Positions 4,836-56,000 of a stretch of DNA of 64,000 nt are shown in pieces. This DNA comes from an uncultured bacterium (lineage in GTDB: Bacteria; Latescibacterota; MWCZ01), in the NCBI GenBank assembly GCA_964510105.1, contig CAZEAI010000001.1:74693-138692 (forward strand). Reading direction: 5' to 3'. Made by a program: the position numbers and the translations under genes. Under the pieces are notes generated by a model that was not told the origin of the DNA, did not search any database, and saw nothing but the letters and a program-made list of their open reading frames with translations. Every line of letters starts with the position of its first letter. Position 1 is the first letter of the stretch.

Positions 4836-5621
4836 TTGGCAACGTCAGTTGAGTGTGCACCGAGCATGGCGTATCTTCAGCGAGTGCCATTCTCGACCAC
4901 CCCGGGACATCCCAACGTGAAGCGTTATCCGACCACGCCGAGCATATTGCTGCTACTGGTCGTCGTCACGACGGCGAACGCGTCGGATGGCGCCAAATAC
5001 GGCGTCGGGCTCAACGCGATGTCCCGTTACGTAGACCGTGATACTAAACGTGCCGGAGCGTCGGTGCAACCGTCTGCGTGGGTTGAGCTTCCGGCTGCTG
5101 GGACCCTTGCGAGCGCGTGGACCTCGTGGAGTGTCGAAAACCTGCGCTTCGACGAGGCGGCGGTTGACCTGAGAATCGGACGCCGGTTCGCCGATGTCAC
5201 GTGGTTCGGCGTCGCAAGCCGCGGCAGGTTGCTCAGGCTGACGCGTCAGGATTCCGCGATTGTGGAGTTCGGCTTCCACTTCACCTGGTTCAACCCTCCA
5301 TACAGACCAACCGCTGTGTTGGCGTATGACCTCGCCGGCGGACGCGGATGGCAGGCGCTCATCAGCATCCCCTACACGGTGCGGCTGGCATTCTTCCCGC
5401 CGACGACGTTCATACCCGAGGTCGGGTTTCGAGTGCAGATACTCGAAGACAATCGCTTCCGAGCCCCCTACCTGTCCTTCACCGCGCTCATCGAGAAACG
5501 ATGGGGGAACCTCGCCATCGTGCCACTGATCTCGGTGATCCCCGTCGCCATCGATGACGAGAACTCCAGGTACGGCGGCTGGCTGGTCTGGGGTGGGCTG
5601 CATCTGGGGTTCGCCCCGTGA
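4836..5621 (+). CDS. Hypothetical exported or outer-membrane protein (start uncertain; alternative GTG at 4917 precedes a signal-like ILLLLVVVTTANA)
   Basis: Aromatic-rich, alternating-hydrophobicity C-terminal half (WLVWGGLHLGF) suggests a beta-barrel or OM protein; 4-nt overlap with the next gene. Confidence 0.4.
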   Translation: MATSVECAPSMAYLQRVPFSTTPGHPNVKRYPTTPSILLLLVVVTTANASDGAKYGVGLNAMSRYVDRDTKRAGASVQPSAWVELPAAGTLASAWTSWSVENLRFDEAAVDLRIGRRFADVTWFGVASRGRLLRLTRQDSAIVEFGFHFTWFNPPYRPTAVLAYDLAGGRGWQALISIPYTVRLAFFPPTTFIPEVGFRVQILEDNRFRAPYLSFTALIEKRWGNLAIVPLISVIPVAIDDENSRYGGWLVWGGLHLGFAP

Positions 5622-6400
5622 CGTTCGTGCGATACTATCCGCGCTGGGCGGCGATCCTGGCGGCGACAGCTCTCTCCGGCTGCGCACCACTCGGGCCGCT
5701 TCCTGTCGTTGCCCCGCCGGAGCTTGTCGCGGGCGTCATGTCGACGCCCAGCGCGGAAACCGTGCAAGCGAGCGGCAGCATCCAGATCATGTCGCCGGAG
5801 GGTTTCTACAATGCGGGCCTGGTCATGTCCTACCGCGCACCCGATTCGCTGCGGGCCCTCGTGCAGGTCGGATTCGGGACGACTGTCGCCGAACTCGCGC
5901 TGACCGGGCCAACCGGCGTCGCCTACCTGCCCCAAACCCGTGAGGCATACCTGCTCGACGCCGAGAGCGCGCTGATGATCGGCACATCCGTCGTCTATCC
6001 GGCGCTGCTCCTGCGCCTCATGGAGCCGGTCTCGGCGGACGACCTCACCGGCGATACGCTGAGGGTCATGTCGAGCGGGGGCAGCTACTACCTTCGAGAC
6101 GAAGCGCCGGACGGAGTCCGCACGTGGAAGATCAGCGGTCGCGGCCGTGACCTCGAGGGAGAGGATTTCACCGCCACCGGGTCAACCATCGAGTGGCACC
6201 GTTCCTTTACGACTCAGCGCGCCCGCCGTGTGCCGAGCCTCCTTACCGTGACGTTCGGCGAATCCACAATGACCGTGCATCTGAACCGAATCAACATCGC
6301 CCCCCACTGGAACACCACTCCGTTCGTCGTGCGACTACCGGACGGACTCGTACCGATAGACCTGAGTACCCGTTCCCGGAAAGCGGACGAGCACAACTGA
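5618..6400 (+). CDS. Hypothetical lipoprotein
   Basis: Lipobox-like signal MTFVRYYPRWAAILAATALSGC; ATGA overlap with the upstream gene. Confidence 0.5.
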   Translation: MTFVRYYPRWAAILAATALSGCAPLGPLPVVAPPELVAGVMSTPSAETVQASGSIQIMSPEGFYNAGLVMSYRAPDSLRALVQVGFGTTVAELALTGPTGVAYLPQTREAYLLDAESALMIGTSVVYPALLLRLMEPVSADDLTGDTLRVMSSGGSYYLRDEAPDGVRTWKISGRGRDLEGEDFTATGSTIEWHRSFTTQRARRVPSLLTVTFGESTMTVHLNRINIAPHWNTTPFVVRLPDGLVPIDLSTRSRKADEHN

Positions 6401-6430: not shown

Positions 6431-8429
6431 ATGCCCCAGCGTACGAAGCGATACATCACCGCGGACGATCTGTACAGATTCGAAGTCGTCACAGACTGCC
6501 GAGTATCCCCCGGTGGTGAGCATGTTGCGTACGCTGTGAAGCGGACGGACCGCGAGACGGAGAAGCGATTCTCCAACATCTGGGTCGCTCCGACGCGCGG
6601 CGGACGCTCGCGTCAGTTCACACGCGGCGACAACTCCGACGATTCGCCGCGATGGTCTCCCGACGGCACTCAGATCGCCTTCACCTCCACGCGCAACCAG
6701 GACAAGGCGCAGCTATTCGTCATCCCATTCGACGGCGGCGAGGCACGGCAGGTCACGGACATGCGCGGCGAATTCGGCGAGATCACCTGGACGCCGGAGG
6801 GCGCATCGGTCATCTGCCTGTTCCGCAAACAGGACGAAAGCGAACGCGAAGCTCGGCATCGTCGACCGGCACTACACTCGGACCTTCTTCAAGATGGACG
6901 GCGAAGGCTACCGCCCGGACGAGCGCATGCACGTGTGGAAGATCGACGTCGGTTCCGGGCGGGCGAAGCAGATCACCGACGGCGATTTCGACACGGAAAG
7001 CTTCGCGGTCTCTCCCGACGGGCACATGATCGCGTTCATCTCGAATCGCACGCCGGAGCCGGATCTGCATTTAGAGCAGGTCGATCTCTGGACCGTATCC
7101 GTCACCGGCGGGGAGCCCCGTCTCATCCCGACACCAGTTGGGGAGATCGGCTATCCGTCCTTCTCGCCGGACGGAGCGTTCATCGCCTATACCGGCGTCG
7201 AGGGAATCGGCGCGTGGGGCCGGAACGAACGCCTGTATATCGTTCCTACGGAAGGCGATACGCCGCGTGTCGACCTCACCGGCGAGTACGATGTCAACGT
7301 CTCGGCGTGGACGCTGGACGACGTGGTGGGAGCCCGACAGATGCCCCCGACGTGGTCTCCGAACGGCAAGCGTATCTACTTCCAGACGGCCCACCACGGC
7401 AACACCGAACTCCGGTCCGTCAAGTCAGACGGCTCGGACATGCGAATCGAACTGGCTGGACCCGGCGCCGTCGGGCCGTACTCGTTCGATGCTCGTCACG
7501 CGCAGGTTGCCCACCGCCTGTCGGATCGCTCCGGTCCCGGACAGGTCTGGACCAGAAACCTGCGCACGGGTGCGTCGCGCAAACTAACGCGCCTGAACGA
7601 GCAGTGGATGGCCCGTATCCAACTCGGATCGGTCGAAGACGTGTGGTTCACCAGCGCCGACGGCGAGGCGGAGGTACAGGGCTGGATACTGCATCCACCG
7701 GGATTCGATCCGTCGAAGCGATACCCGTCTGTGTTGGAGATACACGGCGGTCCCCATCTGCAGTACGGAAACACGTTCGTACACGAATTCGAGGTGTTCG
7801 CCGCGAACGGCTACGTTGTCTTCTACTGCAATCCGCGCGGTAGCCAAGGCTACGGGCAACGCCACGCCCGGGCGATCGAAAACGACTGGGGAGGCTGCGA
7901 CTACGACGACGTGATGCAGTGGGCGGAGATCGTCGCGGAACGGCCGTATATCGACCCGAAGCGCATGGGAGTTACCGGCGGCAGCTACGGCGGGTTCATG
8001 ACGAACTGGATCATCGGCCACACGAACCGGTTCGCCGCCGCCGTGACTCAGCGTAGCGTGAGCAATCTCATCAGCATGTATGGTTCCAGCGACTTGAACT
8101 GGGCCTTCCAGCGCGAATTCGGCGACAAGCCGCCTTGGGAGGACGTCGACAACTACTGGCGACAGTCGCCGATGGCATACATCGGCAACGCGACGACGCC
8201 CACGCTCGTCATCCACAGCGAGCGCGATTTCCGCTGTGATATCGAGCAGGGCGAACAGGTCTACGTCGCGCTGAAGCGACTCGGCGTCGATACGGAATTC
8301 GTGCGCTTCCCGGAGGAATCGCACGGACTCTCCCGCGGCGGGCGAACGGACCGGCGCATCGCGCGACTCGGTCACATGCTGCGCTGGTTCGACCGGTACC
8401 TGTTGCCCACGGATGAATCCGCTTCGTAG
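6431..8429 (+). CDS. S9 family serine peptidase (acylaminoacyl-peptidase / prolyl-oligopeptidase-like) with an apparent +1 frameshift near 6845-6850
   Basis: ORF 6431.. encodes a genuine N-terminal beta-propeller (PRWSPDGTQIAF, FVIPFDGGEARQVT) for about 140 aa and then degenerates into Arg-rich junk. ORF 6894..8429 in the next frame carries the rest (KLGIVDRHYTRTFFKMDGEGY just upstream of its first Met; catalytic GGSYGG nucleophile elbow; C-terminal Asp/His region). Joined length of about 660 aa fits S9C. Confidence 0.75.
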
Positions 8430-10184: not shown

Positions 10185-11200
10185 CAGGGAGTCGTCCGGC
10201 CTGGGAGCGGCAGGCGCGGATTCGGATTCAGATCCAGCTCGGCGCGGAGTCCGCGTTCAAACCAGAACGCCCCCGCGCACGCTACCATGGCGGCGTTATC
10301 CGTACACAGCACCGGCGACGGCTGGTAGGCGGTAGCCCCAATGCGTCCGCACGCATCTCGGACGCGCAGTCGAAGCTCGCTGTTCGAGGCGACTCCACCC
10401 GCCAGAACGAGACGGCGCGCTCGCCTCTTTCGCATCGCACGAAGCGTCGTGTCGACCAGAGCGCCGACGGCGGCGTCCTGAAAGCTCGCGGCGATATCCG
10501 CGCGGTGACGTTCGACGTCGCCGGGGTCCATCTTCTCAACGTGATTCAGGACCGCCGTCTTGAGGCCGCTGAAGCTGAACGCAAATGGATCGTCGCGGAT
10601 CACGGCGCGAGGGAACCTCACGAACTCCGCGTCGCCTTCGCGAGCCAGCCGGTCGATGTTCGGACCGCCGGGATATCCGACCCCGAGCAGCTTCGCCACC
10701 TTATCGTAGGCTTCGCCCGCGGCATCGTCACGAGTCGCCCCGAGAATCGAGTAGGTTCCCCAATCCGGAACCCACATCAGCTGCGTATGCCCGCCCGAAA
10801 CGACCAGCGCCACGAACGGCGGTTCGAGGTCGTCGTTCTCGATGCGATTCGCGAAGATGTGCGCCTCGATGTGGTGCACCGGCACGAGCGGCAGCCCCGC
10901 TCCATATGCGAGGCCTTTCGCCGCGCTGACTCCCACAAGAAGCGATCCAACCAGCCCGGGTCCGGCGGTTATGGCAACGGCGTCGACCTCCGTCAGAGCC
11001 GTACCGGCTTCCTCCAGCGCGGCTCTGACAACCGGGATCACGCGCTCGGTGTGGGCTCGCGAAGCCAACTCCGGGACTACTCCACCGAACGGAATGTGCT
11101 CCGCCTGCGAGGCGATCACGTTTGAAAGGAGTCCGTCGGCCGGGCTGTACACAGCGGCGGCGGTCTCGTCGCACGAGGTCTCGATACCGAGTACTCGCAC
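10184..11200 (-). CDS. tsaD: tRNA N6-adenosine threonylcarbamoyltransferase TsaD (Kae1/Gcp family)
   Basis: MRVLGIETSCDETAAAV start, metal-binding HxxxH region (HIEAHI) and the GGVASN motif; stop overlaps the alr start (TGATG). Confidence 0.9.
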   Translation of the reverse strand: MRVLGIETSCDETAAAVYSPADGLLSNVIASQAEHIPFGGVVPELASRAHTERVIPVVRAALEEAGTALTEVDAVAITAGPGLVGSLLVGVSAAKGLAYGAGLPLVPVHHIEAHIFANRIENDDLEPPFVALVVSGGHTQLMWVPDWGTYSILGATRDDAAGEAYDKVAKLLGVGYPGGPNIDRLAREGDAEFVRFPRAVIRDDPFAFSFSGLKTAVLNHVEKMDPGDVERHRADIAASFQDAAVGALVDTTLRAMRKRRARRLVLAGGVASNSELRLRVRDACGRIGATAYQPSPVLCTDNAAMVACAGAFWFERGLRAELDLNPNPRLPLPGRTTP

Positions 11201-16444: not shown

Positions 16445-18646
16445 CTACGATAGCGCATGCTCCGTCCGCTGGATGATCTCGTCCTGCAGCGGACGCGAGA
16501 GGCGCGTGAAGTAGTCCGAGTACCCCGCGACCCGGACGATGAGATTCGCGTGCTCCTCCGGGTGGTCCTGCGCCTCCCGCAGGAGATCGGACGACACGAC
16601 GTTCACCTGCACCTCGAAGCCGCCGAGGTGCAGATATGTCTCCAGCAGGTCGATCGACTTCTCGCGATCGTCCGAAGACTCGAACATCGACGGCGTGAAT
16701 TTCACATTCGTCACGATCCCGCCGACGAATTTCGTGTGATCTATCTTCGCCGACGAACGCAGCATCGCAGTGACGCCCGAGGTATCATGCCCCTGCACCG
16801 GTCCCACGGAGTCCGCCAGCGCCTCGCCGGCATGACGCCCATCGGGAGTCGCACCGGTCCGCTCACCGAACGCGGAGTGCACAATCCAGCACAGATATCC
16901 GGGCTGATAGGGTCCACCGCGCGGATTTCTATACTGCCGGGTCTCGCCATACCAGAATTCCGAGAACTCGTTCCAGAGGTTATCGGGTTCCTCGTCGTCG
17001 TTGCCGTACCGCGGCGGCTTTGAGCCCATGAGGTGCCGCAGAGCTTCCTCGCCCTCCCAGTCGCGCCGCATGATATCGGCAAGATCGGGCAGCGACACTG
17101 CCTTCTCCTCGTACACCGCCCAGCGGATCGCGAGTAGTCCGTCCACCACGTTTGACAGCCCCACCAGTTCCGGCATCGTGGGGTTGTGGCGCGCGCCGCC
17201 GCACGTGAAGTCCGTGGCGCGCTCGATGCAGTCGCTCACGAATGTGGAGAGCAGTGGATACCGGACCGTCTCCATCCAGCCGCGGTCCCACGCCGCAGTG
17301 ATCTCGTGGTTGTACTTCATGGCCTGGGCGAGGTCGGTGCGGAACTCGTCGACGATCTCCTCCCACGCGGGCTGAGCGCCGCTCTCCTTCGCGCGCTGCC
17401 CGACTCGTTGGACGACTCGTTCAAGGGCCTTGCCCGCGTTCACATAGCCCGACGCCACCCACGGGTTGGAGCAGCCGATCGCGCTGATCTCCACGCACGA
17501 TCCGGCCATGTAGTTGACCGCCTCCTCGCGAGTCACGCCGTCGCGCATGAGCCCGGGAACGATCGCCTCGTCGTTGAATACCGCCGGGAACCCGATTCCC
17601 GTACCCATGAGCCTGACGGATTCGCGCATCACGTCGCGGTCGAGCTTCGGATGCCAGCTCACACACAGCGCCGGATGAAGCATCTGCAAGTCGTGCGATA
17701 CCTCAAGGCAGAGCAGCGACACCTCGTTCGACGCGTCCTCACCCTCGGGCGTCTGGCCACCGACGAACAGCGTCTGCGGGACGGTGTACGGGTCGAACTC
17801 GCTGTATTTCAGGAAGAGGCACGCGAGTGTCTCGTAGGCGCTCTCTTCGTTCATGCGCCCCTGCTCGATATCGCGACGGTAGTACGGCCCGAGGTACTGA
17901 TCGACGCGCCCTGGACAGAAACACCCGTGACCGTGACCGTTCAGCTCGATAACGACCCAGATATGCACGAACCAGAGCAGCTGCGCGGCCTCGCGATATG
18001 TCCGCGGCGGCTCCGACGCAACGTGGCCACACACTTCGTGGATGCGGATCAGCTCGGCCTGCCGCGGGCCGTCGGTCTCCATGGCCATGAGCCACGCGGC
18101 CTCGGAATACCGACGGGCGTACCGCATCGCTCCCGTCAGCGCGTAGGCCATGCCGCGCAACGCGTCACGCTCATCACCGGTTGTGTCCTTGAGCCGTGCC
18201 GCGACATCGTCGCGCAAGCCCGCGAGCCCTTTCTTCAGTATCGTCGGGTAGTCGGGCGTGAGGTGGCCGGTCATCGCCCCTCCCGCACCGTGTCGACACT
18301 CCGCCACCGACTCATGGGCGTCCGGCGAAATGAGCGGCTCGACAACCGCGCTGCGCGCTTCGCCGAGCGTATCCGGGTCCAGGGAGTCAAACTCCGCCTG
18401 TTCCTGTTCGCTCGGCTCCCGCCGCAGCCACCGCCCGACGATGAGTTCGTCCGGGCCGATCTCAACGGGCAGCCGCTCCAACGTGTCGTGAAGCGTCTTG
18501 CCGTAGCGAGCACCTATTCCTTCATCGGCATGGGCGCGGATGCCGCGAGCCCACAACAACTCGCGGTCGACGAAGTATCCAGACTGCTCGAACAGCCACG
18601 CTCGTATGCGTCCGATGCGGTCCGTGCGAAGAATCGGCTGAATCAT
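16445..18646 (-). CDS. Glycyl radical enzyme 1 (PFL-like fold; eliminase/dehydratase type, substrate unknown)
   Basis: C-terminal glycine-radical motif RVAGYSDYF; Cys loop AGSCVEIS (Cys-x-Glu as in glycerol dehydratase/CutC/HypD-type GREs, not the Cys-Cys of PFL); about 730 aa. Start trimmed to MIQPILRTDRIGRIRAW at 18646, because the track ORF (to 18766) has a 40-aa junk extension. Confidence 0.85.
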   Translation of the reverse strand: MIQPILRTDRIGRIRAWLFEQSGYFVDRELLWARGIRAHADEGIGARYGKTLHDTLERLPVEIGPDELIVGRWLRREPSEQEQAEFDSLDPDTLGEARSAVVEPLISPDAHESVAECRHGAGGAMTGHLTPDYPTILKKGLAGLRDDVAARLKDTTGDERDALRGMAYALTGAMRYARRYSEAAWLMAMETDGPRQAELIRIHEVCGHVASEPPRTYREAAQLLWFVHIWVVIELNGHGHGCFCPGRVDQYLGPYYRRDIEQGRMNEESAYETLACLFLKYSEFDPYTVPQTLFVGGQTPEGEDASNEVSLLCLEVSHDLQMLHPALCVSWHPKLDRDVMRESVRLMGTGIGFPAVFNDEAIVPGLMRDGVTREEAVNYMAGSCVEISAIGCSNPWVASGYVNAGKALERVVQRVGQRAKESGAQPAWEEIVDEFRTDLAQAMKYNHEITAAWDRGWMETVRYPLLSTFVSDCIERATDFTCGGARHNPTMPELVGLSNVVDGLLAIRWAVYEEKAVSLPDLADIMRRDWEGEEALRHLMGSKPPRYGNDDEEPDNLWNEFSEFWYGETRQYRNPRGGPYQPGYLCWIVHSAFGERTGATPDGRHAGEALADSVGPVQGHDTSGVTAMLRSSAKIDHTKFVGGIVTNVKFTPSMFESSDDREKSIDLLETYLHLGGFEVQVNVVSSDLLREAQDHPEEHANLIVRVAGYSDYFTRLSRPLQDEIIQRTEHALS

Positions 18647-18732
18647 GTTATGTTGCCTTTCGTGCGATTTGGATGGCGTGTGTATGCTGAACAACCTCGC
18701 CCACGGCTCAAGCCGCGGGCTACATGCTGCGA

Positions 18733-18841
18733 AGTCGGCTGAAGCCGACTGCGTGCCGCCAACCATACCCGTGCCCAGCCACCTTCAGGTGGCTTGTCGT
18801 TCGTAGCCCGACACCAAACGTAGCCCCCGGCTTCAGCCGGA
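18733..18841. promoter_or_regulatory. Array of three GC-rich hairpins with an identical TTCA/TGAA tetraloop in the GRE-2/GRE-1 spacer
   Basis: agtcggcTGAAgccgact (18733-18750), agccaccTTCAggtggct (18777-18794), ccggcTTCAgccgg (18827-18840). Each has a 5-7 bp GC-rich stem and a 4-nt loop; they fill the 85-bp gap between the GRE-2 stop and the GRE-1 start region. Confidence 0.4.
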
Positions 18842-18851
18842 GGGCGACGAA

Positions 18852-21233
18852 CTACAGTTCCGCGTGCTTCGTCCGAGCGATGATGTGATCCTGCATGGTC
18901 TTGTCCAGCAGACAGAAACGCATGCTGAAGCCTGATACGCGCACGGCTATATGCCCGAACCGCTCGGGATCGGCCTGCGCCTCGCGGAGCGTCTCCGAAT
19001 CGATCACGTTGAACTGCATCTGCCCGACGCCCTCATCCACCGCGGCCTGCATGGCGTCGAGCACCTTGTCGAGACCGCTGCCCGCGAGCAGCTTCGGCGA
19101 CAGCTCGATGATCGCGCTCGACGACCCCGCCGCGTGCTCGTGCGGAAGTTCCATGAGCGAGCGGAGCATCGCCGTCAGCCCCTCCTGATCCATGCCCTGC
19201 GTCGCCGACACGCTGTACGCCAGCGGATCGTGCGCGAACCGGCCGTCGGGAGTCGCATTCGTCGCTCGACCGTGATCGAGGTGCCAGACGAAGCTGAAAA
19301 GGTGCGCGTGAAACGACCCACCGTGCGGGGTCGTGTACGTGGCCATATGGTCGCAGTAGTGTTGCGCGGCGCGAGCGACCCAGCGATCGACTTCCGCCAC
19401 GCCGTTGCCGTACTTCGGTATTCGGTTGACGATGAACTGCCGCTCGGCCTCGCCGCCTTCCCAGTTCGTGCGCAGAAGGTCGAGCAGCGTGTCGGCCGAC
19501 ATTGTCCCGTCGCCGAATACGAGCTGCTCTACGGCGTGAATCGAGTCGCCCACGTTCGGCAGCCCGATAGCGCACGTCGAGTGGTAGTGGTATCGCGCGC
19601 CGCCAGCGGTCATGTCCGTGCCGCGACCGATGCAGTCTTCGGTTAGAATCGACGTGTACGGCAATGGGTTCCGCAGGTAATCCTCGGCGTCTCCGCGGTT
19701 CGAAAGCTCCACGGCATGCCGGGCGAAATGTTCGACCTGCGCGGCGTACGCAGCCCATAGCTCCTCGACGTCGCTCATGTTGCACAGTTCGCCGGTTCGC
19801 GGGCCGACCTGCTCGTTGGTCTTGAGATCGCGACCGTCGTTGAGGGCGAGTTCGAGACACTTCGCCGTATTCATCATGTGGCTGACGGCGTGCGGATTCG
19901 TCCTGCCGGGAATCGTCACTTCGACGCAGCCGATGATGGCGTAGTCACGGGCTTCCTCTACGGGAATGCCCTTTTCGACAAGCGCCGGTACGATGGCCTC
20001 GTCGTTGAAGAAGAACGGCACACCACCTCCGCGCCGGATGATCCGGAACGCGGCCTCCAGCAGCCTCTTCGGCGTCCCCCGATGCACGCGTACCGACATG
20101 CAGCGGATCAGGTTCACCCGCCACACAGCCTCGAGGAAGAGATACGTCACGTCGTTCGTTGCGTCCGATCCATCGGACAGCACGCCGCCGATCGTCGCCT
20201 GCTGGACGTCGTAGCTCTTGTACAGCGCGAGGTGGAGCGCCTCGAGGATCTCCAGCGCATCGTCCGGGGTGGTGCGTCCGGACGCGATGTCCGCCTCGTA
20301 GCAGGGATTGAGATACTGGTCGTACCGCCCGAACGAGTTCGCGTTGATCCCGTCTTCCCACCCCATCACGAGATGTCCGAACCAGAGCGCCTGCGCCGCT
20401 TCGTGGAACGTTCGCGCCGGCTTCGCGGGCACTCGCTCACATATCTCCGCGAGCCGTCGGTACTCTGTCGCCTGCGCGGCGTCGGGCTCCGCATCGGCCA
20501 TCCCGTTCAGATGCGCGGCGAAACGCCTTCCGAGCCCGCACGCCGCATCGGCGATCGCACGGGCGGATTCCAGCCAGGGGCGCTTCCGCTGATCCTCGGG
20601 CCGCCATGGCTCCAGCGCGGCGAGTTCGGCGTCGACGCGGTCGCGGATGCCTTCGAATCCTTCGCGTATGATCGTCTCGTACGACGGTACGGTATGCCCG
20701 CCGCTTCCGCCCCAGCCGAAGAACATGCCTGCGTCGATGTCCTTCTGGATGTAGTCGGGGAGCGGAGTCGCGAGCGGCTCCATGCGGCGCGGATGCTCCG
20801 CCCACCAGTCGATTGCATCGTGTACGCGTCGTTTCCAGTCGTCGGGGATGCTCAGGCCGTCCACGCGTTCGTGGGTTTGCGCGGCATGGTCGGGATTACT
20901 GAGCGGCTCACACTCGAGCCAGCCGATGCCGCGGAAGGACTCGTGCTGCTGGTAGCCGACGATGATCTCGCCGGGGCGAATCCGAATCGGATAGCCGCGG
21001 ATGACGTTCGCGAGCGCCAGGGCCTGCCGGACAATCCATGGCCGGTCTTCCGTCTCGCGCATGCTCTCGGCTACGAGCCAGGCCCGCGGGGCGTAGTGGT
21101 CTCCGTAGTCGGCGTCATCCGTCGCGTACTCGCGGAGGCGCTCCACGCGAGGCGAGAGATCGACGCCGTGCGCGCCCTGCACGACTTCGGAGTCGTCTGT
21201 TCGTGAGGTATCGGCGGCTAACACGTCGGACAT
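18852..21233 (-). CDS. Glycyl radical enzyme 2 (PFL-like fold; eliminase/dehydratase type, substrate unknown)
   Basis: C-terminal glycine-radical motif RVSGFSMRF; Cys loop IGCVEVTIPG; 793 aa; clearly paralogous to, but divergent from, GRE-1. Confidence 0.85.
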   Translation of the reverse strand: MSDVLAADTSRTDDSEVVQGAHGVDLSPRVERLREYATDDADYGDHYAPRAWLVAESMRETEDRPWIVRQALALANVIRGYPIRIRPGEIIVGYQQHESFRGIGWLECEPLSNPDHAAQTHERVDGLSIPDDWKRRVHDAIDWWAEHPRRMEPLATPLPDYIQKDIDAGMFFGWGGSGGHTVPSYETIIREGFEGIRDRVDAELAALEPWRPEDQRKRPWLESARAIADAACGLGRRFAAHLNGMADAEPDAAQATEYRRLAEICERVPAKPARTFHEAAQALWFGHLVMGWEDGINANSFGRYDQYLNPCYEADIASGRTTPDDALEILEALHLALYKSYDVQQATIGGVLSDGSDATNDVTYLFLEAVWRVNLIRCMSVRVHRGTPKRLLEAAFRIIRRGGGVPFFFNDEAIVPALVEKGIPVEEARDYAIIGCVEVTIPGRTNPHAVSHMMNTAKCLELALNDGRDLKTNEQVGPRTGELCNMSDVEELWAAYAAQVEHFARHAVELSNRGDAEDYLRNPLPYTSILTEDCIGRGTDMTAGGARYHYHSTCAIGLPNVGDSIHAVEQLVFGDGTMSADTLLDLLRTNWEGGEAERQFIVNRIPKYGNGVAEVDRWVARAAQHYCDHMATYTTPHGGSFHAHLFSFVWHLDHGRATNATPDGRFAHDPLAYSVSATQGMDQEGLTAMLRSLMELPHEHAAGSSSAIIELSPKLLAGSGLDKVLDAMQAAVDEGVGQMQFNVIDSETLREAQADPERFGHIAVRVSGFSMRFCLLDKTMQDHIIARTKHAEL

Positions 21234-53267: not shown

Positions 53268-56000
53268 ATGCGCTCGTTCGCCAACATCCCGACTCTCGTC
53301 GTCCTGTGCAATCTCTTCTCGTGCGCCACCGTGCTGGAGGCACCCGCCGTGAACGCCCCCATTCAGACCACCCACCCGCTCATGCCGGGCATTCGTTCGG
53401 CGGAGATCGCGAAGGCCGACTGGCCGCGAACGCTCCACGACAAGCAACTCACCGGGTTCTCGCCGCTCACGCTCGGGATGGACGAAACGCCGGAAATCTG
53501 GCAGACGATCGACGTGGGCGGAACGTTCGGGTGGGCGGAAACCGTCGCGCGCGCCGACGGAAGCTCCGCGCTACTCGTCGACGACGGACGGCTGACGCTC
53601 TACGACTTCGGAGACGGGCACATCGTATGGCGGGCGGAGGCATCGGGCAGTCTCGTCCATTTCGGCGACATACGCGGAGCAGGACGCTTCGAGGGACTCT
53701 TCACCAGCGGCAACGAGATGTTCCTCGTCGACGGCGCGACGGGCGAGGTGACATGGCGCCACGCATACGATCCGCCGCACGTCCACCTGCGCGCGCGGGT
53801 CGCGGACGTGCTGCCCGACGAACCGGGCCTGGAGGTCGCGGTATTCGAGCAATATGGCGACTCCGGCCGGCTGCTGGCATTCCCGGCAGAAGGCGCGCCG
53901 CGGGAGGTGTGGCGCCGCGTCGTCATCACGAACGACGAGTGGCCCGTCCGCGCCGACCACGGATGCGACGTCGAGTTCGACTTCTCGAACCCCGATCGGC
54001 CGCTGATCTGGTATGTGCGCCACCACCGCTGCCAGTCGTTCGACGCCCGCACCGGAGAGGAGACGGGGCGGCTGCTGTATGAGCTTGGCGGCGGAATCCG
54101 TCGCAACTACGGGCCGTGGCGCATCGCGACCGGCGCGGACGGCCTGCGGTACATCGTCGTCGTGAGCGAGATGGTGCAAACGCACGTGCACGCGATCCGC
54201 ATGCACCCGGACGGCACGCCGGAACTCGCGTGGGAGCGATACTACGGCGAGGTGTACGTCGTGCCGGGCGTCGCGACGAAACTCATCGCCGTCGCGGACG
54301 TAGATGGCGACGGCGCCGACGAAGTCGTATACAACGCCCGCGACCCCGAGAACGACTTCCGCGCGTTCGTCCGCGTGCGCGACGTGGCCACGGGCGAGGT
54401 GAAGCACGTACTGGCCGACCACTGGTGCTCCGGCCACGCGCCGGACGTCGGCCCGGCCAGACGGCACGTGTTCTACGTGCATCCCGCCCCCAACGGCGCG
54501 ACTCCGGAACAGGGGCCGCTTGCGCTTGTGGCGTTCACGCCGGACGGCGTCGATACGTTGCGCTCGTTCGCGTTTGCCCGACCGTGGGGGGTCACGACGA
54601 CCCCCGGCGCGAGTGGGAACGACCTGCTCGTCCGGACTATCGACGGGAGTGAGCCGGGCCTGCTCCGGTTGGCGGGCGACGATCTGCGCACACTCGAACG
54701 GCGGAGCGACGGCTCGCTGCTCAACTCACCAATCGCGGCGCTGGCCTCGAGCGACGACGAACCGCGCGCGGCGACTAGCACGAAGCTCTGCACCTGGTCG
54801 GGCGACGCCATTCGCGACCTGGATCTCGCGGGAGGACCGGCTCCGACTCTGAGCGCGGCGGACCTCGACGGCGACGGCTCAGCCGAACTCGTCGCGCATG
54901 TGCCAAGCGACGAGTTCCGCGTCTGGAGCCTCGGTGACAGCGAAGCGCGCGAGGCATTGTCCGGGCAGTTCCTCGGCGAGACCTCCCGCTACAGCCCGCT
55001 GCTCTACGACGTTGATGGCGACGGGCAGCTTGAGATCATCGTGCCGGGCAGCACCAAGCGCGGCGAGCTGGCGGTCCGGGCAACTCGCGCTGACGGTGAG
55101 TTGCTTTGGGAGTCCATCCTGCCGCACTCCACCACGGACGATGGCGGGAAGGCTGTCGCGTGGAATGCGGGCGAGTTCCTGCGAGCGCCTGACGGCGCTC
55201 GGGCGGGAGTCGCGATCACTGTGTACAGCACGCGCAGGACGATGGAAGGCACGTTCATGCTCGACGGCGCGACGGGCGAAGTGCTCTGGTACCGCGACCT
55301 CTACCGCGACGGCGGGAACATTCGCGGCTACCGGCCGGTGGGAATCCCCGGCGCATTCGACTGGGACGGCGACGGCGCCGAGGAGATCGCGTGGGACATG
55401 TACAGCTACATGGCGTTCCTGCGCGGCGACGGCGAGTTCTCGGCGATCTTCGGCGGCCCGAACGTGAACTCCGACGACCCCGTGCCCGCGATCCTGCTCT
55501 ACGACGGCTTCACGCCCATCTACCGTGACGCCGACGCCGAACGTCCGCACTGGTTCGTGCACCACGGACACGGACGCTTCGGTCTCGTCGGACCGGACCC
55601 GCGCGAGGGCATATGGTGGGAAGACCACGGCTACGACACACCTGACCGCATCGGCTTCATCGACGTTGACGGAGACGGCGTGATGGAGGTCGGCTACGCG
55701 ATCCGCAACAGCACCACGTTCCTGTGCCGCGACCTCTGGACGGGCGACGTGAAGTGGGAGATCGAACTGCCCTCCGCGCCATCCGGGCCCGTCATCACCG
55801 CCGACGTGGACGGAGACGGGCGTGGCGAGTTCCTCGTCGACAGGTGGTGCATCGGCACGAACGCCGACGGTGTCGGCGAGGTGCGGTGGGGGTCGCCGGT
55901 GGCGTTTGGCTGGGCCGTCATCGCGGACTTCGACGGCGACGGCGTCGGGGAGATCGCGTGTCCCGGTCAGGGCCGGATCACCGTGCTGAAGGGGCGGTAG
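53268..56000 (+). CDS. FG-GAP/VCBS-repeat beta-propeller secreted protein
   Basis: Signal peptide; many DxDGDGxxE Ca-binding-like repeats (DVDGDGADEVV, DLDGDGSAELV, DVDGDGQLEII, DWDGDGAEEIA, DVDGDGVMEV, DVDGDGRGEF, DFDGDGVGEI). Confidence 0.6.
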   Translation: MRSFANIPTLVVLCNLFSCATVLEAPAVNAPIQTTHPLMPGIRSAEIAKADWPRTLHDKQLTGFSPLTLGMDETPEIWQTIDVGGTFGWAETVARADGSSALLVDDGRLTLYDFGDGHIVWRAEASGSLVHFGDIRGAGRFEGLFTSGNEMFLVDGATGEVTWRHAYDPPHVHLRARVADVLPDEPGLEVAVFEQYGDSGRLLAFPAEGAPREVWRRVVITNDEWPVRADHGCDVEFDFSNPDRPLIWYVRHHRCQSFDARTGEETGRLLYELGGGIRRNYGPWRIATGADGLRYIVVVSEMVQTHVHAIRMHPDGTPELAWERYYGEVYVVPGVATKLIAVADVDGDGADEVVYNARDPENDFRAFVRVRDVATGEVKHVLADHWCSGHAPDVGPARRHVFYVHPAPNGATPEQGPLALVAFTPDGVDTLRSFAFARPWGVTTTPGASGNDLLVRTIDGSEPGLLRLAGDDLRTLERRSDGSLLNSPIAALASSDDEPRAATSTKLCTWSGDAIRDLDLAGGPAPTLSAADLDGDGSAELVAHVPSDEFRVWSLGDSEAREALSGQFLGETSRYSPLLYDVDGDGQLEIIVPGSTKRGELAVRATRADGELLWESILPHSTTDDGGKAVAWNAGEFLRAPDGARAGVAITVYSTRRTMEGTFMLDGATGEVLWYRDLYRDGGNIRGYRPVGIPGAFDWDGDGAEEIAWDMYSYMAFLRGDGEFSAIFGGPNVNSDDPVPAILLYDGFTPIYRDADAERPHWFVHHGHGRFGLVGPDPREGIWWEDHGYDTPDRIGFIDVDGDGVMEVGYAIRNSTTFLCRDLWTGDVKWEIELPSAPSGPVITADVDGDGRGEFLVDRWCIGTNADGVGEVRWGSPVAFGWAVIADFDGDGVGEIACPGQGRITVLKGR

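Follow-up and report, generated by a model that had tools for sequence, protein, structure and literature searches.

A probable GTAG-type REP doublet in the spacer between two glycyl radical enzyme genes, with an IS200-like transposase gene at the same site in a sister strain

The closest known systems to the element described here are REP dimers, REPINs and REPtrons (Di Nocera 2013, PMC3733652; Bertels & Rainey 2011, PMC3116915; Corneloup 2021, PMC8266576). GTAG-tagged REPs are defined as palindromes with a stem of 6-13 bp, often imperfect, and an unpaired GTAG at one end. The loops of many REPs fit TY; dimers with structured spacers are described, in which the units lie 20-100 bp apart, as are REPtrons, in which the 3' end of the transposase gene may run into the repeat (PMC3733652). 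For REP transposases, GTAG acts as a guide like the guide tetranucleotide of IS200/IS605, a bulge in the stem can be indispensable, and cleavage in one REP/transposase pair depends on three loop positions of T-T-N-A (PMC8266576). PMC3733652 also reports effects of REPs in other bacteria on mRNA stability and termination. Group-4 RAYTs have been reported as common in Cyanobacteria and Caldilineae. For Acido-Lenti-1, the published description goes no further than a candidate small RNA found in two phyla (Weinberg et al. 2010, PMC2864571).

The DNA analysed here is a stretch of 64 kb (hereafter the window; G+C content 64.6%), in which two glycyl radical enzyme (GRE) genes follow one another on the minus strand. 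The upstream gene (18852..21233) encodes 793 aa and ends with a TAG stop at 18854-18852; its homologues bear PF02901 and PF01228. The nearest named GRE homologues, at less than 50% identity, belong to MAGs of Planctomycetota, Armatimonadota and Latescibacterota. The downstream gene (16445..18646) encodes 733 aa from an ATG at 18646-18644, with GAAAGG (18661-18656) located 9 nt upstream. Its longest open reading frame has 773 aa and starts at 18766, 40 codons into the repeat (18647-18766). The N-terminus of the orthologue in contig L002, MQQPNLKTERIGRIREWLF, aligns with MIQPILRTDRIGRIRAWLF from the ATG at 18646, and the gene calls on contigs L003 and L249 also give 733 aa. We therefore moved the start of the downstream gene by 120 nt, so that the spacer, given as 85 bp in the first-pass annotation, spans about 205 bp (18647-18851). 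The JGI contig L003 encodes exactly the same upstream GRE protein and has an identical spacer.

The first-pass annotation listed three hairpins with a TTCA tetraloop (TGAA on the other strand) in this spacer, and all three were recovered where it had placed them. The inner hairpins are AGTCGGC-TGAA-GCCGACT at 18733-18750 (TTCA on the minus strand; RNA folding energy −11.3 kcal/mol) and AGCCACC-TTCA-GGTGGCT at 18777-18794 (TGAA on the minus strand; −12.4 kcal/mol), and the third has the core CCGGC-TTCA-GCCGG at 18827-18840. No other perfect hairpin of the 64-kb window combines a TTCA or TGAA tetraloop with a stem of 5 bp or more. Dinucleotide-shuffled windows contain 0.42 such hairpins on average, and a group of three within 120 nt arose in 0 of 300 shuffles. 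The inventory needed extension on two points. The third hairpin is longer than described, reaching 9 bp with one bulged A (CCCCCGGC-TTCA-GCCGGAGGG), and a fourth one with a TTGA loop, CCCGCGGC-TTGA-GCCGTGGG at 18700-18719, had been overlooked. Compared with its own shuffles, each hairpin is stable (−11 to −20 kcal/mol as RNA, z-scores from −3.7 to −4.8). The stems, earlier considered unrelated, are not all so: each outer hairpin is an inverted copy of the other (20 nt with 90% complementarity, at a distance of 96 nt), and a CGGCTnnAGCCG core is common to three of the four.

Clusters of three perfect tetraloop hairpins within 120 nt (stems of at least 5 bp, differing loops) also occur at 10347-10467 and 55372-55454. 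Two other identities for the spacer hairpins were discarded: their resemblance to a tRNA GAA anticodon loop is confined to the loop letters, and the GTTRRRY core of integron attC sites is absent from the hairpins read.

The four hairpins form a single 152-bp unit at 18695..18846, which reads on the minus strand as CGCCCTCCGGCTGAAGCCGGGGGCTAC ... GTAGCCCGCGGCTTGAGCCGTGGGCGAGG. Its boundaries, CGCCCTCC and GGGCGAGG, were fixed from three aligned copies and correspond to 18846 down to 18695 in the window. The left-arm REP (18820..18846, plus strand) consists of GTAG (18820-18823), CCCCCGGC (18824-18831), TTCA (18832-18835), GCCGGAGGG with the bulged A (18836-18844) and a final CG; it contains the third hairpin of the first-pass annotation. 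The right-arm REP (18695..18723, minus strand) consists of GTAG (18723-18720), CCCGCGGC (18719-18712), TTGA (18711-18708), GCCGTGGG with one G-T pair (18707-18700) and CGAGG. In both arms GTAG thus directly precedes a stem of 8-9 bp with a bulge or a G-T pair, as in GTAG-tagged REPs. The GTAGs that head the two outer hairpins point inward, with the two inner hairpins between them, which makes the unit a 'TT' dimer in the naming of PMC3733652. The distance of 96 nt between the arms lies within the range for inverted REP pairs that can form one large hairpin.

Along the minus strand, the first part of the unit reads CGCCCTCCGGC-TGAA-GCCGGGGGCTAC, a 25-nt linker, AGCCACC-TGAA-GGTGGCT and 26 nt; the second part reads AGTCGGC-TTCA-GCCGACT, a 9-nt linker and GTAG-CCCGCGGC-TTGA-GCCGTGGG-CGAGG, so that the 3' end of the 18733-18750 hairpin lies 9 nt ahead of the right-arm GTAG. 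The left half holds an additional partial head, GTAGCCC (18803..18809, plus strand), which stretches the linker of this half to 25 nt, as against the usual 8-9 nt, and reads GGAGCCC in the sister-strain contig L001.

Folding of the minus-strand transcript, a check proposed with the original annotation, gave a stable structure. The arms have folding energies of −18.7 (left) and −19.8 kcal/mol (right) as RNA, and in the minimum-energy fold of the whole unit they pair with each other and enclose both inner hairpins (−86 kcal/mol as RNA, z-score −4.8; −48 kcal/mol as DNA, z-score −5.3), the two strands behaving alike. A search of the spacer against Rfam returned no family at threshold; gyrA RNA scored 16.4 bits, and Acido-Lenti-1 (RF01687), alone among the families in touching both outer arms (18700-18728 and 18816-18843), scored 24.8 bits for the right arm and 17.5 bits, where the gathering score is 37.

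Such a structure between two paralogous genes could be read as an RNA element selected in the GRE operon, namely an attenuator, a barrier to 3'-5' exonucleases or an RNase site that sets GRE mRNA levels. This reading draws on the position of the unit inside a likely co-transcribed gene pair, 5 nt after the stop codon of the upstream gene and 48 nt before the start of the downstream one, on the very stable RNA fold, on the G-T pair of one stem, which would be tolerated in RNA, and on the effects reported for REPs elsewhere. However, the fold is equally good on both strands, and no T-run follows any hairpin. No terminator-like site was found on either strand between 18400 and 19100, so that intrinsic (Rho-independent) terminators, in which a G+C-rich hairpin is followed by a U run, are not represented here; the attenuator or terminator array suggested earlier finds no counterpart in the sequence. 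The promoter scan gave a single promoter-like site, located inside the upstream GRE gene.

A comparison of orthologous loci also speaks against an operon-specific role. The unit is absent from more distant GRE-GRE operons with 74-77% identity: the spacer of L002 (77%) has 40 bp (8377-8416), contig P0003 has an 88-bp gap between the GRE genes, and L250 (74%) carries in place of the unit an unrelated ORF of 248 aa (5417-6163) with no Pfam match. The region between the GRE paralogues differs from one relative to another, being occupied by 40 bp, 88 bp, the 248-aa ORF or, in L001 and L249, a 98-aa zinc-ribbon membrane ORF; the GRE-GRE gap seems to accept insertions.

The most informative relative is the ENA contig L001, whose upstream GRE protein is 97% identical and whose DNA is about 93% identical to that of the window. 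Its spacer contains, in this order, the 98-aa zinc-ribbon ORF, the 152-bp unit, an ORF of 143 aa and the unit again, this time with an N run. The first copy (L001 4271-4422) is 92.8% identical to the unit of the window over 152 bp, and the left part of the unit recurs at L001 4851-4902. The 143-aa ORF encodes a Y1/HUH transposase, with 79 bits against the Pfam family Y1_Tnp and 64 bits against the NCBIfam IS200 equivalog (cut-off 55). Its HUH motif DHVHVL and catalytic tyrosine (AAYVMNQ) align with those of IS608 TnpA, and its best solved relatives are the TnpA proteins of IS608 and ISDra2. It does not match the E. coli TnpAREP at E≤1 and does not group with the studied RAYTs (groups 2 and 3), being IS200-like by sequence; it may belong to the RAYT group reported as common in Cyanobacteria and Caldilineae. 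A Y1/HUH gene flanked by the repeats, as in a REPtron, is thus found at the L001 locus and not within the window, where blastn-short with the unit and tblastn with the sister-strain proteins detected no second copy of the unit, no transposase gene and no small ORF in the 64 kb. The presence of the transposase in L001 and its absence from the window at one and the same site argue for recent gain or loss.

In a third strain (L249) the small ORF is followed by the unit with a gap, and the flanks of the gap overlap in unit coordinates; the gap may hide an arrangement of unit, tnpA and unit like that of L001. The second copy in L001 and the copy in L249 hold N runs, which makes the assemblies uncertain at these points. 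N runs inside repeat copies were seen in three assemblies (L001 4908-5006, L249 3966-4084, and L123 downstream of tnpA), consistent with a repeat that breaks or confuses assembly.

The differences between the units of the window and L001 are unevenly placed. All 64 stem positions are identical, while two of the 11 differences fall in loops and nine in spacers. Both loop changes, from TTCA to TTGA in the 18733-18750 hairpin and from TTGA to TTTA, affect only the third position, which is therefore free, as in TTNA. The 18777-18794 hairpin is kept in L001, L128 and L223 as AGCCACC-TGAA-GGYGGCT.

The zinc-ribbon ORF and the transposase ORF end inside the left arm of a REP (L001 4262-4284 and 4846-4867; L128 at about 2412-2432). 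They share the tail PPSG-stop, in which the hairpin loop supplies the stop codon (TGA, or TAA in L128); read on the opposite strand, every TTYA loop opens with TGA or TAA.

We scanned genomes, one per species, with the pattern GTAGCCCnnGGCTnnAGCCn(2-3)GGGC, and found the outer palindrome GTAGCCC..GGCT-TY-AGCC..GGGC in at least 119 genome stretches. The matches listed come from Chloroflexota, Cyanobacteria, Myxococcota, Acidobacteriota, Bacteroidota and other phyla, and among them assemblies of Oscillochloris, Caldilineales and Polyangiales have many matches per genome. Among the matches listed, TC occupies the free loop positions in 98 cases and TT in 26, which leaves 13 with other letters; at the free stem positions, 76 of 90 cases are complementary, and the compensatory pairs are of many types. 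A longer form of the palindrome has a one-base bulge, like the left arm in the window. The earlier proposal that structure plus loop is under selection, as opposed to simple duplication, is borne out by this covariation of stems together with a loop that is TC or TT in 124 of the 137 listed matches.

A second perfect hairpin is located just upstream of GTAG in 94 of 132 instances, compared with 38 of 660 for random controls; the distance from its 3' end to GTAG is 8-9 nt in 77 of the 94, and 27 different stems occur (all among the matches listed). The full inverted doublet of four hairpins is visible in several genomes. The search for further arrays of TTCA hairpins, which yielded nothing more in the 64-kb window, turned up dispersed arms in other genomes and in a metagenome.

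In the metagenome scan, the exact left arm of the window (27-mer family) occurs in at least 120 contigs, with 136 instances in the 120 loci listed. In 88 of these instances no more than 200 nt separate the repeat from the end of the fetched locus, which in many cases coincides with the contig end, as expected if the repeat breaks assembly. The copies belong to a related but different organism and show about 70% identity over the whole unit. Among the matches listed, five metagenome loci carry a homologue of the L001 transposase, four with 59-64% and one with 38% identity; in L157 the transposase gene is bracketed by two REP arms. Homologues with about 50% identity were found in Chloroploca, Leptolyngbya, Phormidium, Armatimonadota and Longimicrobium. 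The gene tables of the fetched transposase loci (L123-L128 and L157) contain no tnpB-like neighbour. The transposase genes of these loci have flanking hairpins on both sides with TTCA, TTGA or TTTA loops, also at loci with differing stems (for example, GCGAT-TTCA-ATCGC). A GTAG tag is present at most of these loci; L123 has CTAG.

The metagenome loci L129-L248 (e.g. L133 at about 4480, L202, L205 and L157 at 1351-1946) also contain a longer element with inverted GGTCAT(C/G)AAC ends. Its subterminal part is the module of a hairpin plus a GTAG REP, and T-N-A-T nearly always precedes the element. The junction falls inside the loop of a family hairpin in 29 of 143 cases, and other junctions apparently lie in a second REP type (GTAGGGGCGGG...). 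Hairpin loops may thus be insertion targets of the longer element in the related metagenome.

These observations weigh heavily on the idea of an RNA element for the GRE operon. In the sister strains the unit flanks a transposase gene and adjoins an unrelated small ORF, and the arms occur in more than 200 unrelated places (at least 119 genome stretches and at least 120 metagenome stretches) dispersed across phyla, which leaves little room for the suggested RNase site or for an RNA element that would decouple the two GRE mRNAs. We consider a selected element of this kind improbable, and a dedicated RNA regulator of the GRE pair unlikely.

The identity of the transposase raises another alternative, according to which the L001 state is ancestral and the unit in the window is the scar of an IS200/IS605 element, recombination between direct copies having deleted tnpA, so that the single unit was never mobile on its own. 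L001 does have the right substrate for such a deletion, with two direct copies around tnpA, and its transposase resembles IS200 in sequence; a longer, tnpA-carrying element of the related metagenome (L157) has the hairpin module in a subterminal position. However, the unit is whole on both sides of tnpA, and its arms are inverted with the GTAGs inside, whereas IS200/IS605 insertion sequences have tnpA between distinct ends of the same orientation, an organization not found here. Four-hairpin doublets also exist elsewhere with no tnpA in the inspected flank. Moreover, a single deletion is insufficient to account for the difference between the window and L001, because the small ORF of L001 and L249 is missing from the window as well. 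A pure deletion scar is possible in principle, yet it fits less well than a REP doublet and we regard it as very improbable.

We therefore favour the interpretation that the spacer holds one 152-bp non-autonomous mobile REP doublet with substrates of an IS200-clade transposase, and we consider this likely. Two inverted GTAG-tagged REPs, with the GTAGs inward and two smaller hairpins between them, would constitute the mobile repeat, and an IS200-clade tyrosine transposase of the Y1/HUH type would act on the hairpins as single-stranded DNA. The arrangement in L001, where the transposase gene lies at this very site between two units, resembles a REPtron. By analogy with the characterized enzymes, a transposase of the L001 type is predicted to bind and cleave these hairpins. 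It would read the TTNA loop, the GTAG tag and the bulged stem, which could explain why the loop is constant while the stems differ; the published requirement for a TTNA loop (PMC8266576) accounts for one loop on different stems. In the lineage of the window, the unit would have been inserted into, or left behind in, the GRE2-GRE1 spacer. When transcribed, it would fold in the mRNA and may incidentally stabilize or stall the upstream message without being built for it. Such a side effect, as reported for other REPs, is possible, since the unit begins 5 nt past the upstream stop codon, although it would not be what the unit was selected for here.

As a REP or REPIN with a REPtron-like transposase, the unit is ordinary small mobile DNA and not an operon regulator. 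The structured GRE spacer is accordingly mobile DNA instead of a conserved switch between the GRE paralogues, which removes a false lead. The gain is incremental, as REPs, REPINs and REPtrons are already well described. Still, the recurrence in distant phyla of a single REP body that keeps its TTYA loop and its coupled second hairpin, next to IS200-type transposase genes, offers a natural test set for the questions of how transposases read hairpin loops and how they become tied to REP populations. We tentatively raise the idea, though we think it doubtful, that the GTAG hairpin with a TTYA loop, the second hairpin at 8-9 nt and an IS200-clade transposase gene with no tnpB-like neighbour in the inspected loci represent one ancient REPIN-like system, uncatalogued as such and common to Chloroflexota, Cyanobacteria, Myxococcota, Acidobacteriota, Bacteroidota and the lineage of the window. 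If so, the transposase gene of an ancient system would still be gained or lost between strains with 93% identity, and in a related organism the hairpin loops of the repeat type would also be insertion points for a longer element of the family.

Among known systems, Acido-Lenti-1 (RF01687) resembles the arms in that its hairpin, G+C-rich with a stem of 8 bp and a loop of 4 nt, precedes GGCUA, which is the TAGCC head in reverse complement; its stem sequence differs, and both scores are under the gathering threshold. The Acido-Lenti-1 'small RNA' may itself be a GTAG-type REP. With IS200/IS605 elements (IS608, ISDra2), which are considered here together with their transposase-less derivatives, the L001 locus shares a Y1/HUH transposase about 140 aa long that keeps the HUH and Tyr motifs and would be expected to read imperfect single-stranded DNA hairpins, with the tetranucleotide 5' of the hairpin foot as the guide. 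In contrast to these elements, the window has neither tnpA nor tnpB, the unit is whole on both sides of tnpA in L001, and the arms are mutually inverted instead of forming a left and a right end that are distinct and point the same way.

The likeness to REPs is the closest, and it rests on one copy in the 64-kb window, the multi-copy arm being seen in other genomes and in the related metagenomic organism. As in GTAG REPs, a short, bulged, G+C-rich palindrome is accompanied by an unpaired GTAG, and the loop fits TY if the closing T-A pair is assigned to the stem; the T-T-N-A loop positions are those that matter for cleavage in one studied REP (PMC8266576). As in REP dimers, two inverted units enclose a structured spacer and can form one long hairpin, and as for REPs in general the location is extragenic, just downstream of a gene in a same-direction pair. 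The Y1/HUH gene of L001 is flanked by repeats, one of them overlapping its 3' end, as in a REPtron. Unlike the studied RAYT systems, the transposase groups with TnpA of the IS200/IS608 type; unlike known REPtrons, its gene is present or absent between strains at one site. A further difference from known REPs is the second hairpin that accompanies each REP at a fixed distance of 8-9 nt, giving a four-hairpin doublet, and in contrast to species-specific REPs, one REP body is common to several phyla.
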